64,000 bases of DNA from an uncultured delta proteobacterium (GTDB taxonomy: Bacteria > Desulfobacterota > Desulfobacteria > Desulfobacterales > B30-G6): the NCBI GenBank assembly GCA_963823335.1, contig CAWGLD010000001.1, positions 32,001 through 96,000 of the forward strand, given 5' to 3'. Below the pieces are notes generated by a model. It did no database searches and was not told where the DNA came from. It was given only the letters and a program-made list of their open reading frames with translations. A program made the position numbers and the translations under genes. Positions 975 through 27,341 of this stretch are shown one piece after another. Numbering within the stretch: position 1 is the stretch's first letter; the number at the start of each line of letters is the position of its first letter.

Positions 975-2828
975 CTAAAAGCCAGGTAAATCGCCGAATC
1001 CCAGGATTTGCCAGAAAACCAAGACCAGCAGCATCAGCAGCACTTGAGATAAAATCCAAATGGGTACTCCCACGCGCAGAAAGTCCTTGGGTTCGAGGTA
1101 GCCGCTGGCGTAAACAATGGCATTGGGTGGTGTGCCGATCACCATGCAGTAGGCAAAGGAAGACGAAATAGCCGTTACCATTGCCATGAACGGCAGATAC
1201 ATTGTGCCCGGATGCGCCAGACCGGCCATGTTCAGGGTGACGGGGCCCACGGCGGCGGCGGCAGGACCATCTGCCATCAAATTGGTAATGATGGCTGTCA
1301 GACCGCTCGAGGCTGCCAGCAACGGCAGGCCGGAGTCGATTCCGAGGGGAGCCACCAATTCGAGGGCACTCCTGGCTATCCAGTAGGCAGCACCCGAACT
1401 GTCCAAAACTCTTCCAAAAATCATGGCGCCGGCATAAAGCCAGATCACACCCCAATCCACTTTTTCCTGGTAATCACGCCAGTTGGTGATCCCGGCAAAC
1501 AGATAGGCGATTGCCCCGGCCATGGCAATCACGCCGATGCCCAGGCGCACCGGCAGCCAGCCCATATCAAAAAAGGTTTTTTCGGTAAACCAGCCGAACA
1601 GCATGACGACGAAGATAATGATGGCCGTAATCTGCTTGCGGTTCCAGCCGCCCATCTTGTCGATTTCGAATTTCAATTGGCCCATGGCCGGTGCCAGAGA
1701 AGTGATCTGCGGCTTGAATCGAAGGTTTATGGTAAACCAGGTGAGAGGAATCATGATGATGACAAAGGGAAAACAATAGACGATCCACTGGATATAACCG
1801 ATGTCCATGCCGAACATGTCGTTGAGATAGGTCATCATGATGACGTTACGGGCACCGCCGGAAGGAGCGCCCGGGCCACCGATGTTGCACGCCATGGCGA
1901 TGGTGATCATGATCATTTTGCCCAGTTCCGGATCTTCCGGGATTTCCCGTGTCAGACTGTTCTGGTAAAGCAGCATACCGATGGGCAGAAACATGGCCGC
2001 CAGGGCGTGATCGGAGATAAAGGCCGCCAGGGGGCTGATGATCACAAAAAAGATCAGCGTAATCCAGCGCACGTTCGGTACGGCCAGCTTGCGAAACATC
2101 ATCAGACAGATGCGCTTGTCCACGCCGGTCTTGACAAAGGCTGCGGCAAACATGAGGCTGCCCATGATAAACCAGACCGCATCGTCCCAGTAAAGCATGG
2201 TGACTTCTTTACGGCTGACTACGCCGGTAAACACCAGCAGCAACCCGATGCAAAACGCCACGCCGGGCAGCGGGATGCATTCCGTCAAAAAGCAGATCAC
2301 CACGAAAACGACCATGGCCATGGCCACCTTGATAGCCCAGGCCCCCTGGTCCGCCGACTTTCTGTCCTTGTCGGACAGTTCCTCGTATTTGAGGCCTTCC
2401 TTGCGCAGGGTCAGCGCTTTTTGGGCAACATCCAGATACGTCTCGTTGTCGAGTTTTGTGTCCACGAAAGTCATGGCTCTATCGAAATTTTCCTTGGCCG
2501 CGGGAATTTTGTTACCCCTGGCCCATGACAGATCGCGGTTCAAAAAACTCTTTCTGCCCAGAGCCCCCATCTGAACATTCTGTTCCATGATCTGGGCGCA
2601 GAGAAGTTCCCATTGTTCGGCATCTACACTTTTTTTATTGAAAAATGATTGGGTAATAAAATTAACTGCCGCCGTGGGGCCTACCTTGTATTCCATACCC
2701 ACGTCCTTCATCCCGTAAGGCGTGGGCATGAACAAGATCACAAACAGCAGAATTATTGGAAAAATAAAAATTTTCCAGTTCACGTACTTGTCGTATCCGG
2801 TCGCTTTTTTCTTAGTCTTTTCTGTCAT
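975..2828 (-). CDS. SLC13/DASS family anion or dicarboxylate:Na+ permease (copy 1)
   Basis: TECIP, FISDHA, GGPGAPSGGARN, VIGTPPNAIVY motifs; many TM helices; start set at MTEKTKK (ORF track extends to 2852). Confidence 0.9.
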   Translation of the reverse strand: MTEKTKKKATGYDKYVNWKIFIFPIILLFVILFMPTPYGMKDVGMEYKVGPTAAVNFITQSFFNKKSVDAEQWELLCAQIMEQNVQMGALGRKSFLNRDLSWARGNKIPAAKENFDRAMTFVDTKLDNETYLDVAQKALTLRKEGLKYEELSDKDRKSADQGAWAIKVAMAMVVFVVICFLTECIPLPGVAFCIGLLLVFTGVVSRKEVTMLYWDDAVWFIMGSLMFAAAFVKTGVDKRICLMMFRKLAVPNVRWITLIFFVIISPLAAFISDHALAAMFLPIGMLLYQNSLTREIPEDPELGKMIMITIAMACNIGGPGAPSGGARNVIMMTYLNDMFGMDIGYIQWIVYCFPFVIIMIPLTWFTINLRFKPQITSLAPAMGQLKFEIDKMGGWNRKQITAIIIFVVMLFGWFTEKTFFDMGWLPVRLGIGVIAMAGAIAYLFAGITNWRDYQEKVDWGVIWLYAGAMIFGRVLDSSGAAYWIARSALELVAPLGIDSGLPLLAASSGLTAIITNLMADGPAAAAVGPVTLNMAGLAHPGTMYLPFMAMVTAISSSFAYCMVIGTPPNAIVYASGYLEPKDFLRVGVPIWILSQVLLMLLVLVFWQILGFGDLPGF

Positions 2829-2868
2829 GACACCATTTCCCTCACGGCTCACCGGTCAAGCGTTATTA

Positions 2869-3332
2869 TCATCGCTCGGGTTTTTCAGCCTGCTTCAAAA
2901 TTTCCCGGGGTGATTTCATGTAACTGCGCGATTGCGCCATCTGTATTTTTTCCTCCAATAGCTGTCTTTTCCGAAAAGCCTCCTTAACCTTTGCAATCAG
3001 GTCGTCGATATCCGTGGGTTTCATCAGATAATCCGTGGCGCCGCATTTCAAGCCGTCAATGGCTGATTCGACGGTGGCATGTCCGGTCAGCATAATGACC
3101 TCAACCAGGGGAAACCGTCTTTTAATCTCCTTTAATGTTTCATTCCCGTCCATACCGGGCATCTTGACATCGAGAACCACCACATGAATATGCTTTTGAT
3201 CTCAATAGTGTCAAGGGCTTCCGCCCCGCTGGTGGCGGTAACGACATCGATCCCTTTTTTGTTCAGCAGTTTTTGGGTGGTGGAAAGAAATCGTTCTTCA
3301 TCATCCACCAGCATGAGTTTCATTGCCTCCAT
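2869..3332 (-). pseudogene. Single-domain response regulator with a frameshift near 3195 (real or assembly error)
   Basis: N-half MEAMKLMLVDDEERF...EALDTIEIK and C-half HIHVVVLDVKMPGMDG...MKP are in different frames; one base is missing at GAGATCAAAAGCAT. Confidence 0.8.
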
Positions 3333-3358
3333 AGCAGACTCCTTGTTGAAGTTGTTAA

Positions 3359-3677
3359 TTAAGGATCTTCTCCCAATTATTTGGGAGAAAGGGTCCAAGG
3401 GGTCCAGGATTCAAGGATTCAAGTGTTTGTTTTCAAGGGATTTGATCAGTGCTTTCAGCATTCTCTCTACATCCCCGATCTTCATTCTTAATTCCTGAAG
3501 CCTCTCTTTTCCCATATAACCCAAGTCACCAGATATCATCGTTTATCCAAACAAAGTTTATACGATTTTTCAAAAACGTTTAACTCTTTATAATTTTTAA
3601 GCATTCCACTCGAACCCTGGAATCCTCGAATCCTTGAACCCTTCATTTAGATCAACTCTTTTGGGTCTGATCCTTAA
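3359..3677. mobile_element. Inverted-repeat-bounded cassette with an internally deleted four-helix-bundle gene
   Basis: Ends TTAAGGATC / GATCCTTAA; subterminal inverted arrays of 8-bp GGATTCAA-like units; encloses the gene remnant at 3411-3604. Confidence 0.7.
3411..3604 (-). pseudogene. Four helix bundle protein (23S rRNA intervening-sequence protein family) remnant
   Basis: N-term MLKNYKELNVFEKSYKLCLD joined out of frame to C-term ISGDLGYMGKERLQELRMKIGDVERMLKALIKSLENKHLNP*. Confidence 0.75.
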
Positions 3678-7644: not shown

Positions 7645-9084
7645 TTACTCGCGGTGGTCCTCATCAACGGACGTTTTAAGTTTGAGACCATATTTTTCAA
7701 TTTTGGCGTGTAAGGTGGGGCGGGAAAGCCCGAGCAGTTTGGCCGCCCGGGTGCGGTTTCCATCGGTTAGATTCAAGGCTTCACTGACCAGGGTACCGGA
7801 AATATGATCCATGATGCTTTCATAGGTGTGCTCTTCAGCTTCCTCGGTCATTGATCTGCGCATCCAGAGGCGAATGACCTCTTCGGCCGCTTTGGGATCG
7901 GCATCCCTGATTACTTTTTTATCGTCAAGAGCCTGCAGAACGTCCTCGGATTGGATTGGAGCACCCCGGCTGAAAATCAAGGCTTTTTGAATGGTATTGG
8001 CCAGTTCGCGAACATTGCCCGGCCATAAATGGTTGTTTAAAGGAGCAACAGCACCTCGCTCAATTCCGGGATTGTCCATACCCAACTCGATGGCGTATCG
8101 AGACATAAAATAGTCTGTCAAAAGCGGGATGTCGTCCCGGCGTTCGCGCAGGGGCGGAAGCGAAATCGTTACCACTTTTAGCCGGTAGTACAGATCCTCA
8201 CGAAACCGCCCATTCGCCAGGGCTACCTCCAGATCACGATTGGTAGCCGCAAGAATGCGGACATCCACCGGTATGGTCTGACGCCCCCCCAATCGTTCAA
8301 TACTTCGTTCCTGCAGCAGGCGCAATATTTTGGCCTGAATGCTAAAGGGCATATCACCGATCTCGTCCAGAAACACGGTGCCGCCGTTGGCTTGTTCGAT
8401 TTTTCCCACCCGGCGGTGAACTGCCCCGGTAAAAGCCCCTTTTTCATAACCAAACAGTTCACTTTCCAGGAGGTTCTCCGGGATGGCAACACAGTTGATC
8501 ACCAGAAAGGGTTTCTCCGCTCTCAGGCTGTGCTGGTATATGGCCCGAGCCACCAGTTCCTTGCCGGTCCCGGACTCTCCCCGGATCAGCACCGTTGCGT
8601 CGGCAGTGGAGACACGTCCGATGGCCTTGTATACATCCTGCATGGATTTGCTGCGCCCGACAATGGCTTCTTTGCTTGCTTCGTCCGGTGAAACATCCAT
8701 TTGCACCGGTGTGCGCATAAAACGCCCGGCTTCCAGTGCCTGGTGAATAACCGTCAGCATGGCGGGGATTTCAAAGGGTTTCAGAATGTAATCAAAGGCG
8801 CCTATTTTGGTGGCTTGAATGGCGGTTTCGGTGGTTCCGTAAGCGGTCATGATAATAACCGGAAGCTTGGGCTCTAAGGCGTGAATAGCTTCAAAGGTTT
8901 CCAGGCCGTTCATCCCAGGTAGCCGGACGTCGACGATCACCAGGTCCGGTGACTGGTTTTGAACGATTTCAATACCTGCTTCCCCCGAAGCGGCGCCTTC
9001 AGCCGTGTAGCCTTCCTCGGATAAAAGTTTGTGAAAACTTTTACGAAGCTGGTCGTCGTCGTCAATAATCAGAATCGTGCTCAT
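7645..9084 (-). CDS. sigma54-dependent response regulator (NtrC/AtoC family; REC-AAA+-Fis HTH)
   Basis: GESGTGKE, ESELFGYEKGAFTGA, FLDEIGD, WPGNVREL, C-terminal HTH; start set at MSTILIIDDD. Confidence 0.95.
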   Translation of the reverse strand: MSTILIIDDDDQLRKSFHKLLSEEGYTAEGAASGEAGIEIVQNQSPDLVIVDVRLPGMNGLETFEAIHALEPKLPVIIMTAYGTTETAIQATKIGAFDYILKPFEIPAMLTVIHQALEAGRFMRTPVQMDVSPDEASKEAIVGRSKSMQDVYKAIGRVSTADATVLIRGESGTGKELVARAIYQHSLRAEKPFLVINCVAIPENLLESELFGYEKGAFTGAVHRRVGKIEQANGGTVFLDEIGDMPFSIQAKILRLLQERSIERLGGRQTIPVDVRILAATNRDLEVALANGRFREDLYYRLKVVTISLPPLRERRDDIPLLTDYFMSRYAIELGMDNPGIERGAVAPLNNHLWPGNVRELANTIQKALIFSRGAPIQSEDVLQALDDKKVIRDADPKAAEEVIRLWMRRSMTEEAEEHTYESIMDHISGTLVSEALNLTDGNRTRAAKLLGLSRPTLHAKIEKYGLKLKTSVDEDHRE

Positions 9085-10558
9085 CGTTTGACTCCTGACG
9101 CGGCAAAAAGATGACAAATGTCGCGCCCCTGCTCTGGTTTGATTCGATTTCCAACCATCCGTTATGCTCCTCGATAATGCGAACGGCAATACTCAATCCC
9201 AGTCCGGTACCTTCTTCTTTGGTGGTGAAAAAAGGTTGCAGCACTTTGCCCCTGATCGGTTCGGGAATCCCCGGACCGTCGTCACTTATCCGGATGAGCA
9301 CACCCCTCTCTTTTGACCGTGCCACCGATTCCTGCTCCTGAATGACAATGGAACCACCCCTTTCCATGGCCTCGCATGCATTCACCACAAGATTGACAAT
9401 GACTTCTTTGATCTGCTCGGGATCGGCCTCGATTTCAGGCAGATATTGCTCACGCCTGATGGCTACCTCGACATTATAGGACTTTAGACGATGTTTTAAT
9501 AGCGTGATGGCTTGATCGACAACCATTGAAGGACTGACGGGCTGGATCTTGAGTTTCGGAGGTCTGGAAAATTCGAGAAAATTCTGAACGATGGTATCCA
9601 CATGACGAATTTCTTCCGATATGACATCAAAATCTTCTTTCTGGGTATCTGTGAGCTTCAGTGATCGGCTCAAACTGAAAAGACGCATTTTCACCGACGT
9701 AAACGGGTTGCGAATACTGTGGGCCATCCCGGCGGCAAGTTTGCCGACCAAAGCCATTCTATCCGCCTGCAACAGGGATTCACGGCTTTTTTGAAGCTCG
9801 GACTGGGTCTGGTCCACATTCTGAATCAGGCCTCGCACGCCATGACTGAGCACTTTGACCTCATCACCCACCAAGGCTTTATCCTCCTCGCTGCCGACTT
9901 CAACCGTCAAGCGGCGAAGCGGTCTGAGAATCTGGGATCTCAAAACAAATGCCAGCAAAACGGCCAGAAGGAAACCAATGCACACGGTGGTTATGGCAAC
10001 AATCCTGAGGTTGGCGGCCTGGATCTGGTTGTTCGCTTTTACCTGCTGAATTCTTTCTTCATGGATCTCTTTGTATTTATGGCATAAATCCAATAGGGTG
10101 AAAAAAAGATCGCGGACCTGCCGGTGAAGGGCAACGCCGGTATCACGATTACCCGCCTGATAGTAGGAGATGACGCGATCTTTGAGGTTGATGTACTGAG
10201 CATATTCGGATTTGATCCGATAAAGCGCTTCTTTTTCATGCTCGTTTTCAGCCATATGTATCGCATCTGTCAGCCGCTCTTTGAAAATCTGCCGAAATTC
10301 ACCCAGTTTTCTCAGCCATTCGGGGTCACCTTCCATAAAGTAATAGGAAACAAACCCTTTCTGGTTGACCAGCGCAATTTCAAGGGCTTCCGCTGCTTGA
10401 AACGCCACGATGTTTTTTTCCGTAACACCCACCAGCAGAGTATCCATTTGATAGGTGTACCAGACGGTAACGATACCTCCGGCCATGGTGATAAAAACCA
10501 GCGCAGCCAGAATGACGTAAATACGGATACGCAGGCTCATTTTCCGCCATATTTTCAC
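9062..10558 (-). CDS. Sensor histidine kinase with helical periplasmic domain
   Basis: Two TM helices, H-box MAHSIRNP, FFTTKEEGTGLGL; overlaps the start of the activator gene. Confidence 0.93.
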   Translation of the reverse strand: MKIWRKMSLRIRIYVILAALVFITMAGGIVTVWYTYQMDTLLVGVTEKNIVAFQAAEALEIALVNQKGFVSYYFMEGDPEWLRKLGEFRQIFKERLTDAIHMAENEHEKEALYRIKSEYAQYINLKDRVISYYQAGNRDTGVALHRQVRDLFFTLLDLCHKYKEIHEERIQQVKANNQIQAANLRIVAITTVCIGFLLAVLLAFVLRSQILRPLRRLTVEVGSEEDKALVGDEVKVLSHGVRGLIQNVDQTQSELQKSRESLLQADRMALVGKLAAGMAHSIRNPFTSVKMRLFSLSRSLKLTDTQKEDFDVISEEIRHVDTIVQNFLEFSRPPKLKIQPVSPSMVVDQAITLLKHRLKSYNVEVAIRREQYLPEIEADPEQIKEVIVNLVVNACEAMERGGSIVIQEQESVARSKERGVLIRISDDGPGIPEPIRGKVLQPFFTTKEEGTGLGLSIAVRIIEEHNGWLEIESNQSRGATFVIFLPRQESNDEHDSDY

Positions 10559-17347: not shown

Positions 17348-18100
17348 ATGCTATTAGCTACACTAATCAAAGCCAGCGTATTTTTAGGAAGGGCTCTTCT
17401 TGGGGCATCCCGTGACCTGGCACCCATCATCATCGTTATCGCGCTGTTCCAGGTCCTGGTCCTACATCAACCCTTCCCGGACTTTTTATCGATATTGGCC
17501 GGATTGGGACTGGTGATTGTTGGCTTAGCCCTTTTTGTGGTCGGTCTGGACATGGGTCTCTTTCCCCTGGGCGAAGCCCTGGCAGAAGAATTTGCACGTA
17601 AAGGCAGCCTCTTCTGGCTTTTGCTTTTCGCTTTTGCCTTAGGGACCGGAACCACCGTTGCCGAGCCGGCCCTGATAGCCGTCACACGCGAGGGGGCAAG
17701 AGCCGCCGCCGAGGCGGGACTTATTGACAATACCGTTACCGCGATAAAGCAATATGCGTTTGGCGTCCGTTTGACCGTGGCATTGTCCGTCGGCGCTGCA
17801 ATTGTTCTTGGGGTATTGCGAATTTTACGCGGTTGGTCCCTGCCAATTTTGATCGTCGGCGGCTACCTGCTGATTATGCTCATGACCGTGTTCGCACCAA
17901 AGGAGATCATAGGATTAGCGTATGATTCGGGCGGCGTCACCACCTCAACCGTTACAGTGCCACTCGTTACGGCCCTGGGTGTTGGACTCGCGCGCACCAT
18001 ACGCGGCAGAAGCCCATTGACGGACGGTTTTGGTCTCATCGCCCTGGCATCTCTTACGCCCATGATATTTGTGATGATTTACGGATTGATCGTCATTTAG
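17348..18100 (+). CDS. DUF1538 family membrane protein
   Basis: GLFPLGE, TVAEPAL, AYDSGGVTTSTVTVP, DGFGLIA. Confidence 0.9.
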   Translation: MLLATLIKASVFLGRALLGASRDLAPIIIVIALFQVLVLHQPFPDFLSILAGLGLVIVGLALFVVGLDMGLFPLGEALAEEFARKGSLFWLLLFAFALGTGTTVAEPALIAVTREGARAAAEAGLIDNTVTAIKQYAFGVRLTVALSVGAAIVLGVLRILRGWSLPILIVGGYLLIMLMTVFAPKEIIGLAYDSGGVTTSTVTVPLVTALGVGLARTIRGRSPLTDGFGLIALASLTPMIFVMIYGLIVI

Positions 18101-18107
18101 GGGAAAT

Positions 18108-18866
18108 ATGGAAATACTTTTTAACCCCATACTGCTGCTGATGGCCACAGCCAAAGAAGTGCTTCCGGTTCTCGGGCTGCTGGTTATATTTCAAACCCTT
18201 GTGCTCAAGAAACCACTTCCCCAGCCGGGTAGAATCCTCTTTGGATTCGTTGCCGTTCTGGTCGGTATGACCTGCTTTCTCGGTGGCTTGGATTTGGCTC
18301 TTTTTCCCATTGGCAGAACCATGGCGCTTCAACTGGCTGAGAGCGCCCAGTACGGTGGTAAGGCAACCTGGACAGCTTATGGATGGGTCTATCTTTTTGC
18401 CTTTTTGATGGGTTTTTCCACCACCATAGCAGAGCCGTCCCTCATCGCGGTGGCCCACAAGGCACATGAAGCCTCACGCCAGGCAATTTCATCCTGGGGC
18501 TTACGTATTGCAGTTGCTATCGGGGTTGGCTTCGGTATAACATTGGGTACCTTTCGTATCGTCACAGGTTCACCGCTGTATCTTTATATTATGGCTGGAT
18601 ATGTGGTGGTTATCATTCAAACCGCATTTGCACCCCGGATGATTATTCCATTGGCTTATGATTCCGGTGGTGTGACGACATCTACGGTAACCGTTCCACT
18701 GGTTGCAGCCCTTGGTTTGGGGCTGGCCTCCAGCGTTCCGGGCCGAAGTGTCGTTATGGATGGATTCGGGCTCATCGCGTTTGCCAGTCTGTTTCCAATC
18801 ATCAGCGTTTTGGGCTACGCCCAACTGGTTCAGTGGAGAGTGCAACGGAAAGCCCGTAAAACCTAA
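18108..18866 (+). CDS. DUF1538 family membrane protein (paralog)
   Basis: TIAEPSL, AYDSGGVTTSTVTVP, DGFGLIAFASL. Confidence 0.9.
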   Translation: MEILFNPILLLMATAKEVLPVLGLLVIFQTLVLKKPLPQPGRILFGFVAVLVGMTCFLGGLDLALFPIGRTMALQLAESAQYGGKATWTAYGWVYLFAFLMGFSTTIAEPSLIAVAHKAHEASRQAISSWGLRIAVAIGVGFGITLGTFRIVTGSPLYLYIMAGYVVVIIQTAFAPRMIIPLAYDSGGVTTSTVTVPLVAALGLGLASSVPGRSVVMDGFGLIAFASLFPIISVLGYAQLVQWRVQRKARKT

Positions 18867-19070
18867 AGTGAGCGTTTCAAATTTTAAGAATATTGGATTT
18901 AGAAATATTTTCAAAGGATTTGATCCATTTGGATTCTTAAAATTTGAAACCCGTTGGGATTGTCGATCTTACCGCATCTACGGTGTCAGATGCCATTCCG
19001 CATAGACCACTATAGCGAAATAGCATCTTCCTTGTATCTACGGCAACCTCGACAATCGCTCAATTTAGGT
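18861..19070. mobile_element. About 210-bp MITE-like element with internal hairpins
   Basis: Ends ACCTAAAGTGAGCG / CGCTCAATTTAGGT (13/14 inverted); perfect 18-bp internal inverted repeat 18874-18891 / 18933-18950. Confidence 0.6.
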
Positions 19071-19148
19071 AAAAACAAACAAAGTACTGCCCGAGTATAA
19101 GTGCAAAGCTAAAATATGGAAGGAATCGGGCGAAAGTGATGGCGCGCA

Positions 19149-19472
19149 ATGGTGTATAAATGCATACTCGCAATGGTGAAGCCGGACTTGACCGGTATGG
19201 TCGTCGATTCTGCTAAAGAAGTAGGTGCCACCGGAGCGACAATCATACCCGCTTCGGGCACAGGTGCCCATGAAGCGAAAACCTTTTTCGGCCTCAGCCT
19301 GGATATTCGCACGGATGTGGTTCTTTTTCTGGTGGACAATGAAATTGTTGAAGCGGTCCTATCTGCCATTCAAGAGGCCGGGCGGTTTAACGAACCCGGC
19401 ACGGGAATCGCTTTTGTGCTGGCTGTCGAGCAGACAGCCGGATTGGAAAGTCAGACGTCACCGCATCGGTAA
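19149..19472 (+). CDS. P-II family signal protein
   Basis: GATGATIIPASGTG, PGTGIAFVLAVE; usual partner of DUF1538 genes. Confidence 0.88.
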   Translation: MVYKCILAMVKPDLTGMVVDSAKEVGATGATIIPASGTGAHEAKTFFGLSLDIRTDVVLFLVDNEIVEAVLSAIQEAGRFNEPGTGIAFVLAVEQTAGLESQTSPHR

Positions 19473-21307: not shown

Positions 21308-22306
21308 CTAACGCTTGAATCTTAAAATGAGGGGTTTTGTTGCTTTGGAATGGTCATCACCAGAATTATCAAATACGGCCATTGCGAAACCATACCGCTT
21401 TAAAGGGTTAAAAACCACATCATCCTCATGACCGGTATCCAGTTTTCTGGTGAACATTACGGTCCAAAAGCCATCCGCATAATGACTTTCAGCCTTCACG
21501 TCAAATCGAGATCCATCCGGCTTAACGGGCAATCGATAGGGAATGATGTCTCCAACTCCAAATTTATCATAATCTTGTATTTTTACAGCCTGCTCAAAAA
21601 GAAGGATACCGGGGATGGTGGGTTTTTTATCCGGATCCTGCATATATACGGGTCTTAATCCATTCATATCCTCATTTCTTATGTCTCCTCCGGTGCCGAA
21701 ATCTTTCCGTCTTCCTGTTTCGCGATAGGACCCGGATGGGTTCCCGGCCACGGTCAGCCATGCATCATCTGCATACCCATACGGAGCCGAACGAGCGGCT
21801 TTCCAATGCCATAAGTCACCTTTTTCCACATCGGTTCGTGTCGCGAACCGCCATTTTTCCTTGGGAATGTCAGGAGGACTGTGGCACGTAACCGCACACC
21901 CCCGCGTGGCAAATTTTTGAATTCGCGTCGTTTCGAACAGCAATGCAATCCGATCTTCATTGCCCTCCATATGGACCCATTCATTGCCATTAAACCGCCA
22001 TGATTGCTTGATAACACTGTGGGTTGCATCTCTCCATCTCAACCTGAAATACACGCTGTCATCCGTGTAGGCCGCTTGTGTAGACACAACACCATTGGTC
22101 ACGTCAACAATTTCCCTTCCCTGGACAGGGATATCGATCCCTTTAAAATTCTGCCAGATGGCATCGTCCAAGCCTTTTGGCGCTTGTACAAGGTGTTCCG
22201 CGCTGATCATCAATGTGTCGGCTGCCATGAGAAAATTCCTTCCTAAGGGCAGAAGAACCAAAACCAACGAAAAGAGAACCAGACAAAAAGATTTACCACA
22301 ACTCAT
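21308..22306 (-). CDS. Exported EbdC/DOMON-like heme-binding protein (ethylbenzene dehydrogenase gamma-related)
   Basis: Signal peptide; YFRLRWRD, NEDRIA, GCAVTCH, DLWHWKA, RKLDTG, AVFD. Confidence 0.85.
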   Translation of the reverse strand: MSCGKSFCLVLFSLVLVLLPLGRNFLMAADTLMISAEHLVQAPKGLDDAIWQNFKGIDIPVQGREIVDVTNGVVSTQAAYTDDSVYFRLRWRDATHSVIKQSWRFNGNEWVHMEGNEDRIALLFETTRIQKFATRGCAVTCHSPPDIPKEKWRFATRTDVEKGDLWHWKAARSAPYGYADDAWLTVAGNPSGSYRETGRRKDFGTGGDIRNEDMNGLRPVYMQDPDKKPTIPGILLFEQAVKIQDYDKFGVGDIIPYRLPVKPDGSRFDVKAESHYADGFWTVMFTRKLDTGHEDDVVFNPLKRYGFAMAVFDNSGDDHSKATKPLILRFKR

Positions 22307-22339
22307 AACAAACCTCTACCTTGTGATTACACGCCCATG

Positions 22340-23404
22340 TTAATGTGCAGTGGTTCCAAAATGTTCAAAATAACCCATAAAGGACAGCGTCAGCAGAAGA
22401 ACCGCTATCGCTGCTGCCGGTATGATAGTTTTCAATCTCTTGGCAGGGTGACGCTCTGACGAACGATCAAGAAAGGGCAACAAAAGCACCAGCCCTGTCA
22501 GGCAGCCTGGAATAATCGCGGACCCCATCACCATTAACGGTCCCTTAAAAATCGCCACCAACTGGTTTAAAAATAAAACCCACCATTCTGGTCTGGGTAC
22601 AAAATTGGAATCGGTGGGATCCGCCGGGTCTCCAAACGAAGAGGGCCAATACCAGCTGATTAGGCCCAAGATCAATGTAACCATCAGAAACAACACCATA
22701 AATCGGCTTATAATGGTCGGGGTTGTCGTTTTCTTGGCGTCACCGTTACTTGTTAGCAGCAACTCCGCTAAACCGCGCCGATAAATAAAGTGGAAATGCA
22801 CAGCAATAAACAGCAATAACGCGCCCGGTAAAACGAGTATATGCAACACGTAAAATCGTGTCAGGGCAACGATACCGGTTAAAGATCCACCTTGAAGAAT
22901 CCGGGTCATGAAATCACCCACCAGTGGTACAGACGAAATAATACTTAGCCGCACCTGGGTAGACCAATATCCTTTCTGATCCCAGGGGAGCAGGTCCCCG
23001 GTGATGATAAACAAGGGAAAGATCATGAAGGTCAACACCCCGGACACCCACACCAGCTGTCTCGGGGACTTGTATGCCCCAGCAATCATCGCCCGCAGCA
23101 AATGCAGTCCCGACGTGATCAAGAGCAGGTTCCAGGCATAATGGTGAATACCCCTGATAACACTTCCGAAAGGAAGGTTGAAAATAGAATAATCAACGCT
23201 GTCATAAGCCGCTCCAGGAACAGGGGAGTAGTAAAAAGCCATGACCCCCCCGGACAACAACAGGAGTAGAATCAAAACCAGGATCAGCGAACCTGAAAAG
23301 CGGCGCCAGGAAAGAGCATTGTCGGAGACTTCAAATGTCCGAAGCCTGCCGACAAGCTCTTTCAATGCAAGAAATTCAAGTAATATATCAAACCGACTTG
23401 TCAC
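22340..23404 (-). CDS. Cytochrome b of a Rieske/cytochrome b complex (b6 and subunit IV-like parts fused)
   Basis: Four heme His (RGIH, GLH, YVLH, AVH), LPWDQKGYW, LTRFY, PRPEWW. Confidence 0.92.
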   Translation of the reverse strand: MTSRFDILLEFLALKELVGRLRTFEVSDNALSWRRFSGSLILVLILLLLLSGGVMAFYYSPVPGAAYDSVDYSIFNLPFGSVIRGIHHYAWNLLLITSGLHLLRAMIAGAYKSPRQLVWVSGVLTFMIFPLFIITGDLLPWDQKGYWSTQVRLSIISSVPLVGDFMTRILQGGSLTGIVALTRFYVLHILVLPGALLLFIAVHFHFIYRRGLAELLLTSNGDAKKTTTPTIISRFMVLFLMVTLILGLISWYWPSSFGDPADPTDSNFVPRPEWWVLFLNQLVAIFKGPLMVMGSAIIPGCLTGLVLLLPFLDRSSERHPAKRLKTIIPAAAIAVLLLTLSFMGYFEHFGTTAH

Positions 23405-23548
23405 AATCTTCCCCTCGCATGGAGCTATTGGTCTTGGCGCTGGTGTTCCTTACGTTATAAACGCTCATTATCAAGTTCGAGCGGTTGTTCGACCTAATTT
23501 TCCATAGCAGTTTCGGAACATTATTCTGACAAACGCTATAACAAGCGG

Positions 23549-24538
23549 CTATCGTTTGAAACTCAGAGTGATAACTTCGGAATCATAAGAATTTTCATCT
23601 CCGGAATCATCAAACAATGCCAGAGCAAAGTTGTAATTCTTGCGCACATTAAAGGCAACATCGTCGTCATTGCCGGTGTCCAGTTTTCTATGAAGCAAGA
23701 CTGTCCAACCCCCATCCGCATAGCGGCTCACTGCCTTGATATCGGCCCTGGATCCTTCAGGCGGAGTGGGCATCTGGTACGTAAGCGTATCGCCTGCTTT
23801 GAATATGGAGTAATCACTTATTTCTACGATATCCGAAGCGAGCAGGATGCCGTCATCGGTAAGCTTTTTGCCGGGCGCCAGCATATATTTCGGTTTCGAT
23901 TTGTCCTCCGTCATATTTTTCTGGTCACCGCCCTTGCCTGCGTCGCTCTTTCGTCCGCCACCCTTTTCACCTATTTTTGTCAGCCATGTATCGTCGGCAA
24001 ATCCGGCAGGATCTGATCGAGCTGCTTTCCAGTGCCAGAGGTCACCTTTCTCCGCCTCTGTGGTTGTCCCGAATTTCCCTTCTGAGGCATTGGGCGCTCC
24101 GGATGGCACATGGCAGGTAATCGCACAACCTTTTGTGGCAAAGTTGTTGATTCGATTAATTTCAAAAAGTATCGATATGCGGTCTTCATTACCTTTCTGA
24201 TGGCTCCATTTCTCGCCATCGTACTGCCAGGCACCCTTCGTCAAGCTCTTTGTTGCATCGCTCCATTTGAAGAGGAAGTAGATGTCGTCATCGGAATAGA
24301 CTGCTTTGGTACTGACAGATGTTTTTTCCCCGGCAAATTTTTCCTTTCCATCAAAAGGAACAATAATTCCCTTGGCCTTTTCCCAGACGGCATCATCCAA
24401 CCCAGAAGGCCCTGATTTTACATGCTGTACAATCAAGGTCTCCTTGGACGCGCCGATGGCCTCATTTGACTTCATGAAAAATGCACCAAAAACCAGAATC
24501 GCACAAATCGTCAAGCTTACAATAAATTTTATGCCCAT
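23549..24538 (-). CDS. Exported EbdC/DOMON-like heme-binding protein (paralog)
   Basis: Signal peptide; YFLFKWSD, NEDRIS, GCAITCH, DLWHWKA, RKLDTG. Confidence 0.85.
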   Translation of the reverse strand: MGIKFIVSLTICAILVFGAFFMKSNEAIGASKETLIVQHVKSGPSGLDDAVWEKAKGIIVPFDGKEKFAGEKTSVSTKAVYSDDDIYFLFKWSDATKSLTKGAWQYDGEKWSHQKGNEDRISILFEINRINNFATKGCAITCHVPSGAPNASEGKFGTTTEAEKGDLWHWKAARSDPAGFADDTWLTKIGEKGGGRKSDAGKGGDQKNMTEDKSKPKYMLAPGKKLTDDGILLASDIVEISDYSIFKAGDTLTYQMPTPPEGSRADIKAVSRYADGGWTVLLHRKLDTGNDDDVAFNVRKNYNFALALFDDSGDENSYDSEVITLSFKR

Positions 24539-24570
24539 GTTATTATCTCCTTTTTTGGGGGTCCATTATT

Positions 24571-25143
24571 TTAGAAGGATAGATAAACCAGCAAATTGCC
24601 TTCATTTATCTTATGTTCCAATGTTGACAACGCTCGTGTCGGCGGCCCAGCTACAGGCTTACCATCCGCATCAAATCTACCGGAATGACAGGGGCAATCA
24701 AAGGATTGTGTGTCGTCACGCCAGATCACATTACATGCCAGGTGGGTACAGGTTGATGAGAATATTTTGAATCGATCGTCTGCTTCCGCCCTAGCCCACA
24801 CAAATCCTCGTTGAGGCAGAACCAACCACCCATCTTTCACCATAAACTCATAGGCAAGCATCTGAAAGCCGGTCGCTTGAATATCTGTGGTTGCACCAAA
24901 ATCAACCCATTTTCCGGTTCCCTTTTTCATGGCAGGCGCGATGAGATAGGAAATTAGTGGAATACCGGTGAGGAATGAGGCGCAGCCCATCAATGTGGCA
25001 ACCTGGAGAAAGCCCCTCCGATCGGCCTTGATAGGTTCCGCTGACGACATTGCATCATTGGCAATGGCAATTTTGCCGCTGTTCATTTGCTTGAGTCCTT
25101 CATCCATGGCAACAATTGAAACACTATAGAACTCCTGAGGCAT
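24571..25143 (-). CDS. Rieske 2Fe-2S subunit
   Basis: Tat-type RRGFL plus TM anchor, CTHLAC, CPCHSGRF, GPP; real start may be 25086. Confidence 0.93.
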   Translation of the reverse strand: MPQEFYSVSIVAMDEGLKQMNSGKIAIANDAMSSAEPIKADRRGFLQVATLMGCASFLTGIPLISYLIAPAMKKGTGKWVDFGATTDIQATGFQMLAYEFMVKDGWLVLPQRGFVWARAEADDRFKIFSSTCTHLACNVIWRDDTQSFDCPCHSGRFDADGKPVAGPPTRALSTLEHKINEGNLLVYLSF

Positions 25144-25300: not shown

Positions 25301-26635
25301 CTATTGTGGCATACTATCACTCAAATCCTTGGGATGCGGCGCAGATGAACTGCTTGCGGACTGAAAAAACAATGATACTTTTGTCCCTTTCCCCAGATCA
25401 CTTTCTATTTGAAAGCGCCAGCCGAACCGATCACATAGCCTACTCACAATAGACAGACCCAGTCCATATCCTTGACTGCTTTCTCCCCTGGAATATGGTT
25501 GGGTTACCCTGTCTAATTCACAAGGATCAATGCCCTCACCTGTGTCTGTGATAGATACGCTGTCACCACAGACCTGTATGGAAATCGTTCCATTCAGGGT
25601 GTGATGGAAAGCATTGTTAATCAAATTGGTGATAACCGCCCTCAATACAGGAGGTGGCGCGTTGAGAATGGGTTGGGCCTCTTGTACAAAGTGTATTTTG
25701 ATCGACTTGTCGGCAAGAAGATGACGCTTTTGTTTGACGACATCCTGAATCACGGGTACAACAGCACATATCTGGCTGGAATCGATTGTTAATCTTTCTC
25801 TTCCCAACCAGAGGAAGGTTTCTATAATGTTTTCCATGTTTGCCACCGCACGTGAAATACGCTGCACAGGTCTATAAACCGACCGCTCTTCCATAGCAGA
25901 TTGCTTCTTCAATATTTCAACCGCTCCCTTGATCACCGTAACCGGGGTCCTCAATTCATGACTGGCATCCCTTGTAAATTTTTTCTCCCGTTTGATAAAT
26001 GCGTCTACCCTTGTCATGGCCGTTTCCAGTGTTTTTGCAAGAAGTCCGACCTCATCATTTGAGAAAGATCCGTGAAGATCCATCGGCAGCTTTTCCGGGC
26101 CGGATTCCCTAACCTGTTCTGAAAGATAGACAACCGGTGCGATGATTTTTCGGGATGTCATCATTCCGATCCATATGGCCAACACAACAATCAGGATGAC
26201 GCCAATGCTGAGAACAATACCGATATAGAGTTTCCGGGTTTCCGTGAATTCAAGGGCACTTACGTTGTAAAGCATATACAGCGGCTCCGTTCGATTCGGG
26301 TATAGCTTTACCGCGACATGGTACTCAATTCCCTGGTAATATTTTTCATGAATACCTTCGCTGATACCCTCGACCATCGATGCTGCAAAGTCCGGCATCG
26401 ACTTACTACCGGCGTATACATTTATATGAGACGAATTGGGCGATAAAAGACCGGCGTGTTCTTGATATTGAAGCCCTACACGAGCCATTTCTTCAGACAG
26501 ACGACTATCGATCATTTTGTCATCGATAAAGTCCAGAGAGATATATATGACCAAAGAAAAAATAATTCCGAGTCCTGTACCGAACAGACAGAATGTAAAA
26601 ACAATTCGCTTCCGAAGACTATGACGAAATTTCAT
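25301..26635 (-). CDS. Sensor histidine kinase, ColS-like
   Basis: MKFRHSLRKRI N-terminus, GIHE, ExxE (EFTE) before TM2, HAMP, FTRDASHELRTP. Confidence 0.9.
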   Translation of the reverse strand: MKFRHSLRKRIVFTFCLFGTGLGIIFSLVIYISLDFIDDKMIDSRLSEEMARVGLQYQEHAGLLSPNSSHINVYAGSKSMPDFAASMVEGISEGIHEKYYQGIEYHVAVKLYPNRTEPLYMLYNVSALEFTETRKLYIGIVLSIGVILIVVLAIWIGMMTSRKIIAPVVYLSEQVRESGPEKLPMDLHGSFSNDEVGLLAKTLETAMTRVDAFIKREKKFTRDASHELRTPVTVIKGAVEILKKQSAMEERSVYRPVQRISRAVANMENIIETFLWLGRERLTIDSSQICAVVPVIQDVVKQKRHLLADKSIKIHFVQEAQPILNAPPPVLRAVITNLINNAFHHTLNGTISIQVCGDSVSITDTGEGIDPCELDRVTQPYSRGESSQGYGLGLSIVSRLCDRFGWRFQIESDLGKGTKVSLFFQSASSSSAPHPKDLSDSMPQ

Positions 26636-27341
26636 TAGACCTCCCCAAACAATATCCAACACCACGAACCGTTTGAAGAAGAGGTGTGCTAAATGGCCTG
26701 TCTATGGCACGTCGCAGTGCATAAATATGGCTGCGCAAGGCATCACTTTCAGGGGGCAAATCACCCCACAGTGCATATTCGATTTCTTTTCGCTCAACGA
26801 CATTGGGGTAGGCTTTCATTAGCATTGCAAGAAGGTTTAAACAGGTACGATTCAACTCGATGAGTTTCCCGGACCTTCGAACCTTCATGGTTCCCAAATC
26901 CAGTTCCAGATCAGCCACATGAAATTGTTTTTCAGTTAAATCAATACCCCGGCGAACGATCGCATTAATTCTTGCCGAAAGCTCTTTTAGGGCAAAAGGC
27001 TTAACTAGATAATCATCCGCTCCGGAATCAAAACCAGCGAGCTTGTCATCGAGGGTGTCACGAGCGGTCAGCATCAGAATAGGGGTTTGTTTTCCACCCT
27101 CTTTTCTGAGTTTTCTACAAAAAGTGAGTCCATCCATTCCCGGTAGCATGACATCCAATATGATCGCATCATAATCCTGGGTCAATGCCAGGTGCAACCC
27201 ACCGATGCCATCCATGGCAAAATCCAGTTGATGCCCACCGGCTTCCATGAAATCCGCAATATTTTCAGCGATATCGATGTTGTCCTCCACAACAAGGATA
27301 CGTAAAAGACTTTTCTGTTTAAAGGCTGACAATTCCATCAA
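26619..27341 (-). CDS. OmpR-family response regulator, ColR-like
   Basis: RILVVEDN, GLHLA, LTARDTLDDKLAGF, ALWGDLPPESDALRSHIYALRRAIDRPF, TVRGVGY. Confidence 0.93.
   Translation of the reverse strand: MMELSAFKQKSLLRILVVEDNIDIAENIADFMEAGGHQLDFAMDGIGGLHLALTQDYDAIILDVMLPGMDGLTFCRKLRKEGGKQTPILMLTARDTLDDKLAGFDSGADDYLVKPFALKELSARINAIVRRGIDLTEKQFHVADLELDLGTMKVRRSGKLIELNRTCLNLLAMLMKAYPNVVERKEIEYALWGDLPPESDALRSHIYALRRAIDRPFSTPLLQTVRGVGYCLGRSNEISS

Follow-up and report, generated by a model that had tools for sequence, protein, structure and literature searches.

In cytochrome bc1 systems, the operon includes a membrane-anchored class I cytochrome c1 with a CxxCH motif. Archaeal precedents exist for other proteins in this place. 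According to PMC5461723 and PMC4429474, the CbsAB-SoxLN (cytochrome ba) complex of the Sulfolobales has CbsA as a c1 analogue beside the SoxLN Rieske protein and cytochrome b. CbsA is membrane-bound together with CbsB and carries a high-potential b-type haem (+400 mV, PMC13741234); a passage of that paper on FoxC and CbsA indirectly supports CbsA as an EB_dh protein. The haloarchaeal Rieske/cytochrome b-Nar cluster combines a Gly/Phe Rieske protein with a periplasmic b-type haem shuttle, lacks a cytochrome c gene and is linked to NarGH (PMC3509893, section 6). In a control search, the EB_dh profile PF09459 gave matches in Sulfolobus acidocaldarius and Haloferax volcanii. The EB_dh protein of the Sulfolobales is presumably CbsA itself. 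The same fold is found in EbdC and NxrC, the haem b subunits of type II DMSO reductases, and the EB_dh domain also occurs in NirB (cytochrome c-552) and the NirTB fusion of Stutzerimonas and Rhodocyclus. NirB is described as receiving electrons from a quinol-oxidising partner in PMC8954225 and PMC13086519.

The locus described here encodes, with a probability of roughly 55%, a complex III-like quinol oxidase whose high-potential chain terminates in c-type DOMON proteins rather than in cytochrome c1 or f, and by analogy it may work like CbsA-SoxLN and the haloarchaeal Rieske/b-Nar system. In the window, i.e., the whole 64,000-nucleotide stretch of Desulfobacterales DNA that was analysed, four minus-strand ORFs encode a Rieske [2Fe-2S] subunit (24571-25143; PF00355), the EB_dh/DOMON protein A (23549-24538; PF09459, E 1.7e-53), a cytochrome b (22340-23404; PF00033/PF13631) and the EB_dh/DOMON protein B (21308-22306; PF09459, E 3.7e-51). 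The gene order is that of the original prediction, which had also noted correctly that CxxCH is absent from all four proteins and that the two exported paralogs carry a CxxxCH variant, namely, GCAITCH in A (24110-24127) and GCAVTCH in B (21881-21898). CxxCH occurs once in the stretch, in an ORF of 80 aa (22004-22246) read from the other strand. Compared with CbsAB-SoxLN, the acceptor proteins are bacterial, predicted to be secreted and soluble-looking, probably c-type at CX3CH, and present as two paralogs. The locus has no NarGH, molybdo-enzyme or nirS/nirT genes, which sets it apart from the haloarchaeal cluster, from EbdC/NxrC and from the context of NirB. Upstream are genes for a sensor histidine kinase (25301-26665, minus strand; HATPase_c/HisKA) and an OmpR-family response regulator (26619-27341, minus strand; Response_reg and Trans_reg_C) that overlaps the kinase gene. 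This two-component pair (25301-27341), overlooked previously, travels with the module. A promoter and terminator scan of the locus stayed at chance level. Three RNA runs from two studies, found using the stretch itself, gave shares of 0.05-0.12, and short contigs from such runs cover A and cytochrome b at an identity of at least 99%, although contigs cannot show transcription.

An HMM and synteny survey showed that the Rieske protein, A, cytochrome b and B form a conserved module, with all four present in 54 of the 68 GTDB loci. An EB_dh gene adjoins the Rieske or cytochrome b gene in 66 of these loci, and a real CxxCH gene was found at the module core in none of them. Wherever both are visible, the Rieske gene directly precedes A, whereas B shifts its place or is missing. 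The same kinase cluster is found upstream in 17 of the 68 loci, and the response regulator is co-conserved with it. An A-like gene in one genome (G244) has no Rieske or cytochrome b gene within 18 kb. A sister module consists of a Rieske protein, a split b6 (YCFGG) with subunit IV (PEWY) and one CX3CH EB_dh protein; since it uses the same partner types, the pairing of Rieske/b with EB_dh is older than the present clade. No published description of the module was found in the literature searched, which did not extend to subscription papers such as ten Brink 2013 and Dibrova 2013.

The Rieske protein has a twin-arginine anchor and the motifs CTHLAC...CPCHSGRF, the second of which aligns to CPCHGSQY of b6f. 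Gly155 is present in all 59 aligned orthologues and Phe157 in 56 of them, and such Gly/Phe proteins are of the low-potential type (PMC3509893, section 6). Predictions of this kind can miss, as a Ser/Phe protein was measured at +335 mV (PMC12954380). The true start is probably Met20 (25086), given that this residue is near-invariant in homologues. Menaquinol, the substrate originally proposed, would call for a low-potential Rieske type, as seen here, and for menaquinone in the host. MqnC, MenB and MqnA/D gave no match over cut-off in the 94% complete host genome, in which a motif search for quinone genes matched only an unassigned UbiA-like prenyltransferase.

Judged by its sequence, the cytochrome b unites b6 and subunit IV in one fused chain, in which the Cys for haem ci has been lost and a periplasm-side His348 gained. 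The best solved matches of its N-terminal part and of the Rieske protein are b6f subunits, and helix D histidine spacing and seven membrane helices are shared with that type (hydropathy; the low-confidence model, pLDDT 62, was used for helix bounds alone). Unlike b6f and the Firmicute b6c complex, it is a single chain without a cytochrome f or c partner; the split b6 plus subunit IV with the CxGG motif for haem ci is found in the sister module. The haem ligands His 87, 101, 188 and 203 are invariant across orthologues, and Cys301 is the sole Cys. Two further features had been read correctly before, namely, the lack of the haem ci Cys, whose position is occupied by Phe36, and PEWW in place of PEWY, which lies at residues 272-275 (22580-22591). 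PEWW is present in all 59 full-length orthologues and absent from the main text of a Qo-motif survey (PMC4122944), whose supplementary file may list it. Position 208 on the Qi side is variable across homologues, and with haem ci lost as well, it is uncertain whether the complex runs a complete Q cycle.

Proteins A and B are 49% identical. The model of A (pLDDT 90) is an EbdC-like beta-sandwich with Z scores of 21.2 to EbdC and 20.7 to NxrC, which supports the original assignment to an EbdC-like DOMON fold in the c1 slot. The haem b expected with that fold is less well supported: the Met ligand of EbdC is replaced by Phe156/Phe154 (Phe or Leu in the profile alignment of orthologues), and its Lys ligand by His or Asp/Asn, in a loop whose register is uncertain by about 2 residues. 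The loss of the Met ligand makes haem c at CX3CH likelier than haem b, and A and B are thus probably c-type. The EbdC model TIGR03477 scored 39-42 bits, below its cut-off of 170. CX3CH is no local variant, since it characterises a large branch of EB_dh proteins including NirB and occurs in 120/120 close homologues of A and 141 of 150 distant relatives. In a NirTB fusion encoded directly after nirS, it aligns with GCWASCH of the NirB portion (hhalign 98.6%), and NirB shares a C-terminal His as well. As NirT and NirB are tetra- and dihaem c-type proteins (PMC13086519) and NirTB contains five CxxCH motifs and one CX3CH, the latter is needed as a haem site. NirB differs in its additional CxxCH haem domain, its 21% identity and its partners NirT and NirS; the host genome was found to have neither NirS nor NarGH. 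It does have CcsBA maturation genes, which together with the NirTB haem count make covalent attachment at CX3CH probable. A search of the EB_dh family gave 1297 matches in over a thousand clusters, and the ESM Atlas matches were EB_dh clusters alone, with no new function. Sequence and fold searches found no solved structure of a CX3CH EB_dh chain; the toxin-fold rows returned are background.

The two paralogs, treated alike before, differ at the distal residue. B keeps the distal His of the family as His319 (21350-21352), within H-S-K in 59 of 60 orthologues, so that its haem is probably a His/His haem c. Residue 316 of A is Asn316 (23591-23593), in a column of 52 Asp, 9 Asn and 2 gaps among 63 sequences. 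The distal loop lacks His, Lys, Met and Cys in 226 of 249 A-type sequences, with 3 others being pattern mismatches, and has His at 316 in 4. A has no membrane anchor and does not itself provide a distal ligand. Ligation by Asn316, as in SHP, was rejected because Asp is the more frequent residue, and Met256 is not favoured (Leu/Ile in 9/63); Lys155 (62/63) and Tyr318 (61/63) are possible ligands. B nests among the A-type sequences in a quick tree, and A is the predicted core acceptor, with B as a dispensable duplicate.

His348 of cytochrome b (22361-22363) may be the ligand that A lacks. It is present in 57/57 complete GTDB sequences, in all 119 homologues and in 47 of 49 metagenome sequences, and some cytochromes b end 1-2 residues past it. 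All five subunit IV tails available from the sister module lack it. In four of these cases the DOMON partner has its own His or Lys in the distal loop, and in the fifth a frameshift falls in that region. At one locus (L151), A with His316 occurs with a Tyr at 348, but at two others (L158 and L163) both histidines occur together, and the pattern rests on few independent events. That the haem of A is either ligated in trans by this new His or an open catalytic site, making the four genes a complete inducible quinol:oxidant reductase, is put forward tentatively.

In the quinol oxidase proposed, a low-potential quinol would be oxidised at the PEWW site. One electron would pass via the Rieske cluster, for which the sequence type suggests a potential of about +120 to +160 mV, to the haem of A, which would be attached at CX3CH by CcsBA, with the motif His taking over the role of the EbdC Met. 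His348 may supply the distal ligand and dock A, and the other electron would cross the two b haems to the altered Qi side. B may be an optional second carrier; this is awkward, since His/His c haems usually lie below +140 mV. A complex prediction with the Rieske head, A, B and two haems, from which cytochrome b was left out, scored 0.00 and carries no weight in either direction. Electrons would continue to a periplasmic sink of the host, here most plausibly the cbb3-type oxidase, and the module would be under two-component control. The host is not simply the anaerobic sulfate reducer first supposed: dsrA is present, but so are genes for a cbb3-type oxidase with ACIII-like genes, a bd oxidase and a qNOR-like protein. 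The cbb3 genes, however, adjoin their own ACIII-like donor. Genes of the haem-copper family were found in 38 of 50 genomes that carry the module and in 15 of 34 relatives that lack it, in a comparison of kin that are not independent.

Alternatively, the module could be a self-contained terminal reductase in which the Rieske protein feeds A, whose open, acidic-lined distal site reduces H2O2, O2 or NO, and B stores electrons; such an inducible quinol peroxidase or scavenger may conserve energy. We consider this rather unlikely, although the ligand-free distal loop of most A-type sequences and the upstream two-component genes, from three different families, speak for it. Dihaem peroxidases likewise contain one low-spin and one open haem. 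A peroxidase activity attributed to proteolysed NirB was not documented in the literature searched. None of the genes that recur around the module in the 68 loci encodes a terminal enzyme. Haem-copper genes are missing from 12 of the 50 carriers, including the single-chromosome genome G378, and likewise from G018 (97% complete) and G121 (99%), which also weighs against the quinol oxidase reading. None of these three has NirS, NosZ, NapA, NirK or NarG over cut-off, and G018 and G378 lack CCP_MauG matches as well. However, NrfA is present in G018 and G121, and multihaem and molybdo-enzymes are other possible sinks. Furthermore, a catalytic residue would not be expected to vary as residue 316 does, the module can do without B, and the site could instead be closed by His348.

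Reverse flow, in which a periplasmic donor would supply A or B with electrons for quinone reduction by the complex, is improbable. CbsAB-SoxLN has been proposed for uphill and downhill flow (PMC5461723), and the Qo residues Asp137 (in place of Tyr), Trp275 and Asn280 are non-canonical. The probably low potential of the B haem would also fit. Against this, Glu273 of the Qo site is kept in 119/119 homologues and no donor dehydrogenase gene recurs nearby in the 68 loci. The hosts, mostly with dsrA (43/50), moreover have ample low-potential routes to quinone.

Slightly less probable still is that CX3CH forms a disulfide or metal site, the DOMON domain binds haem b, sugar or nothing, and a cytochrome c elsewhere is the true acceptor. 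The fold is common to CBM9 sugar-binding modules (Z 13), the genome encodes other mono- and multihaem cytochromes c, and a CX3CH EB_dh structure is lacking among those searched. Yet CBM9 scores far under EbdC/NxrC, the His that follows the second Cys is conserved to the same degree as both Cys residues (101/102), a second His lies at the EbdC Lys-ligand loop in 82 of 102, and the NirTB haem count requires the site. A sensory or non-bifurcating redox module, sensing for instance the quinone pool or oxidants with the two-component pair and conserving no energy, would suit the loss of haem ci, the variable Qi-side residue, the patchy occurrence (6/40 relatives) and the often adjacent two-component genes, but is very improbable given the invariant haem His, Rieske box and Qo Glu and the many loci without such a pair.

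The quinol oxidase with DOMON acceptors would bring to three the solutions for the acceptor position in complex III-like enzymes, here through a beta-sandwich whose predicted covalent haem is attached at CX3CH. Standard counts of CxxCH overlook this site across the whole family. The split-b6 sister and the fused form offer a recent, readable case in which b6 and subunit IV were fused and haem ci was lost, a step that is debated for cytochrome bc evolution (PMC5600118, section 8). A single mutation would suffice to test the His348/Asp316 pattern, and if the open-site reading is true, H2O2, O2 or NO would be reduced without a separate terminal enzyme. Sediment sulfate reducers would seem to have no need of a Rieske complex, so the module bears on their use or survival of oxidants.

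The four minus-strand open reading frames of the original prediction, their order and their motifs were all confirmed in the window (21308..25143), namely, a Rieske protein (24571-25143), the secreted EB_dh/DOMON protein A (23549-24538), cytochrome b (22340-23404) and a second such protein, B (21308-22306). A and B are 49% identical to each other and were the sole two PF09459 proteins found by a profile search of this genome, G000. The synteny survey was based on a GTDB scan with 159 confirmed relatives. The best 80 of these 159 formed 68 loci, of which 54 contained the complete four-gene set and 66 had an EB_dh gene adjoining a Rieske or cytochrome b gene; by their titles, 65 belong to Deltaproteobacteria/Desulfobacterota groups, and three titles were generic. 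Loci without the full set were mostly cut off at contig edges or frameshifted. Two arrangements were seen, Rieske-A-cytochrome b-B and Rieske-A-B-cytochrome b. Of 78 metagenome loci, 71 had a neighbouring Rieske or cytochrome b gene; the remaining seven are contigs of 1.2-7.2 kb. B is absent from L067, L081, and L094, and the 99% complete genome G121 has a single EB_dh match, next to Rieske and cytochrome b genes; A is therefore the core partner and B is optional. The occurrence of the module is patchy (6/40 relatives), and 300 genomes sampled across the phylum gave two strong matches, of which the one in G244 lacks both Rieske and cytochrome b genes within 18 kb. Locus L222 carries an A-type EB_dh gene (8231-9226), with Rieske and cytochrome b genes absent within 18 kb. 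No enzyme gene recurred beside the module among the loci surveyed. The chief recurring neighbours were two-component pairs of three families, located upstream on the same strand in 17, 5, and 5 loci, and in the window an OmpR-type regulator and a kinase lie immediately upstream. Two DUF1538 genes and a P-II-like gene at 17348-19472 of the window probably form a transporter module.

The N termini of A and B read as cleavable signal peptides, with cleavage judged by eye, and no membrane helix follows. Across orthologues, one A sequence of 64 and five B sequences of 61 were flagged for a hydrophobic stretch further along the chain, in a set in which the B reading frames often had over-long starts. 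The ligand residues of EbdC are Met 108 and Lys 201. A model of A (pLDDT of 90) matched EbdC (Z of 21.2, rmsd of 2.2, 192 aligned residues) and NxrC (Z of 20.7). Met and Lys bind haem b in EbdC (PMC13741234, accessible part). In A and B, profile alignments place Phe or Leu at the Met position, with the CX3CH motif (GCAITCH in A, GCAVTCH in B) as an insertion just ahead of it, which makes haem c at this motif more likely than haem b. All 120 close homologues carry the motif, as do 141 of the top 150 distant representatives. When A and B were aligned with the 100 matches 250-560 residues long, 101 of the 102 rows kept the two Cys and the His of the motif, and 82 had a second His in the C-terminal loop, at the site of the Lys of EbdC-type proteins. 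The motif also aligns with GCWASCH of a NapC/NirT-EB_dh fusion encoded immediately downstream of nirS on a Ruegeria plasmid, which has five CxxCH motifs and one CX3CH. NirT is described as a tetrahaem and NirB as a dihaem c-type cytochrome, and NirTB fusions that follow nirS are known (PMC13086519, accessible part); the sixth haem is accordingly expected at CX3CH. This motif is accepted as a haem site in other cytochromes (bioRxiv 2025.05.29.656830, accessible part), and G000 encodes a CcsBA-type maturation system. A and B are thus probably c-type haem proteins. In the large secreted proteins P0131, P0140, and P0142, the CX3CH EB_dh domain occurs in three or four tandem copies, and some of these proteins carry a PKD or type IX secretion tail; they are possibly multihaem chains invisible to CxxCH counts.

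The two proteins differ at the distal haem-ligand position. Residues 319-321 of B are His-Ser-Lys in 59/60 orthologues, whereas A has Asp (52/63) or Asn (9/63) opposite His319. Among 249 A-type sequences from overlapping sets, 226 had a distal loop free of His, Lys, Met, and Cys; the others comprised 4 with His, 8 with Lys, 6 with Met (three being pattern mismatches), and 5 unmatched. On these sequences, the haem of B is probably His/His ligated, while A itself supplies no distal ligand.

The N-terminal part of cytochrome b aligns without gaps to b6. Seven helices, of which the final one ends at residue 349, are predicted from hydropathy and from a low-confidence model. Phe stands in place of the haem ci Cys, and Asp137 in place of the Tyr found in the GYxLPW motif of b6. 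Position 208, the site of the Qi His in bc1, is freely variable. The Qo motif PEWW was conserved in three sets (59/59, 119/119, and 48/49) and was not found in a search of the main text and two of the three supplementary files of a Qo-motif survey (PMC4122944). In the Rieske protein, the box CPCHSGRF is aligned with CPCHGSQY of b6f; Gly/Phe-type Rieske proteins are listed with potentials of 120-160 mV (PMC3509893, accessible part), and predictions from sequence type can fail (PMC12954380, accessible part). His348, which topology places where the last helix reaches the periplasm, was retained in 57/57 complete GTDB sequences, 119/119 homologues (retrieved with this region as query), and 47/49 metagenome sequences (one exception is a frameshift), and several cytochromes b terminate one or two residues past it.

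A sister module was detected at metagenome loci L146-L148 and L199 and at GTDB locus L106 (L146:1601-4253; L106:3356-6039). It consists of a Rieske protein (box CPCHAGVY in L146 and L148), a short b6 with the haem ci Cys (YCFGG), a subunit IV with PEWY in a loop nearly identical to that of the module cytochrome b, and one CX3CH EB_dh protein, and at times lies directly upstream of the four-gene module, in tandem. A quick tree built from 69 sequences placed the sister EB_dh proteins outside A and B and nested B (support of 99) among A types, beside three A-type proteins with His316, the distal position of A. Given this split b6, PEWY, and outside branching, the module cytochrome b seems to have arisen by fusion, with loss of haem ci, a change of PEWY to PEWW, and gain of His348. 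An equivalent of His348 is missing from all five sister subunit IV tails, and four of the five sister DOMON partners have their own distal-loop His or Lys, the fifth being frameshifted. In L151, A has His316 and cytochrome b has Tyr at 348; both His316 and His348 are present in L158 and L163. This pattern is consistent with, but no proof of, a role of His348 as a trans ligand of the haem of A and as a docking point for the unanchored A, although the independent events are few.

The host had been regarded as an apparently anaerobic sulfate reducer. The presence of dsrA in G000 agrees with sulfate reduction, but bd and cbb3-type oxidases are also encoded, the latter with ACIII-like genes, as is a qNOR-sized haem-copper gene. 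At L023:1771-14045 (G000:C1:317.8-330 kb) of this dsrA-bearing genome, bd genes and an Rrf2-like regulator are divergent from the ACIII-like and cbb3-type cluster, and L024:6830-11003 (G000:C1:396829-401002) holds a second Rieske/cytochrome b module with the Qo motif APWY and an octahaem-TPR cytochrome c partner. Neither menaquinone pathway was above cut-off in G000 (MqnA/D, MqnC, MenB), so we infer the quinone used only from the Rieske type; among the genomes searched, MqnA/D was found in 2/21 and MenB in 0/13 despite encoded quinol-using enzymes, and the quinone-gene search found only an unassigned UbiA-like gene (L230:12717-13667). The same locus encodes an octahaem tetrathionate reductase-family cytochrome (1893-3527), adjoined by a cytochrome b-like gene and rhodanese-like genes, and phenylphosphate synthase-like and phenylphosphate carboxylase beta genes at L231:5209-9896 possibly serve anaerobic phenol-type degradation.

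We favour, with a probability of about 0.55, a quinol oxidase in which A would stand in for c1 and B would be an optional carrier. Across 50 carrier genomes, from 50 of the 68 GTDB loci, dsrA was found in 43, and haem-copper family genes in 38 compared to 15 of 34 module-free relatives, kin not being independent. However, carriers G018 (97%), G121, and G378 (one chromosome) had no haem-copper, NirS, NosZ, NapA, NirK, or NarG match over cut-off; bd was present in all three, NrfA in two, and a weak CCP_MauG match in G121 only. Judged by gene content, the module does not depend on any one known sink, so that the main rival, though less likely, stays viable: A would itself be the catalytic end of a self-contained reductase.

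For the quinol oxidase with A in place of c1, precedents exist. In the accessible parts of the respective sources, a DOMON-type or b-type protein replaces c1 in archaeal CbsAB-SoxLN (PMC5461723, PMC4429474) and in a haloarchaeal Rieske/b-Nar cluster (PMC3509893), Rieske acceptors vary (PMC5600118), and NirB is a CX3CH EB_dh protein between quinol oxidase and reductase that occurs in Rhodocyclus without NirS (PMC8954225). The module would differ by uniting the replacement of c1 with the NirB type of EB_dh protein: c-type CX3CH DOMON proteins would serve as Rieske acceptors, in an unequal pair and together with an apparently fused PEWW cytochrome b. The module is real and conserved, and searches of the openly accessible literature found no description of it. 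It is a new variant among Rieske/cytochrome b complexes.
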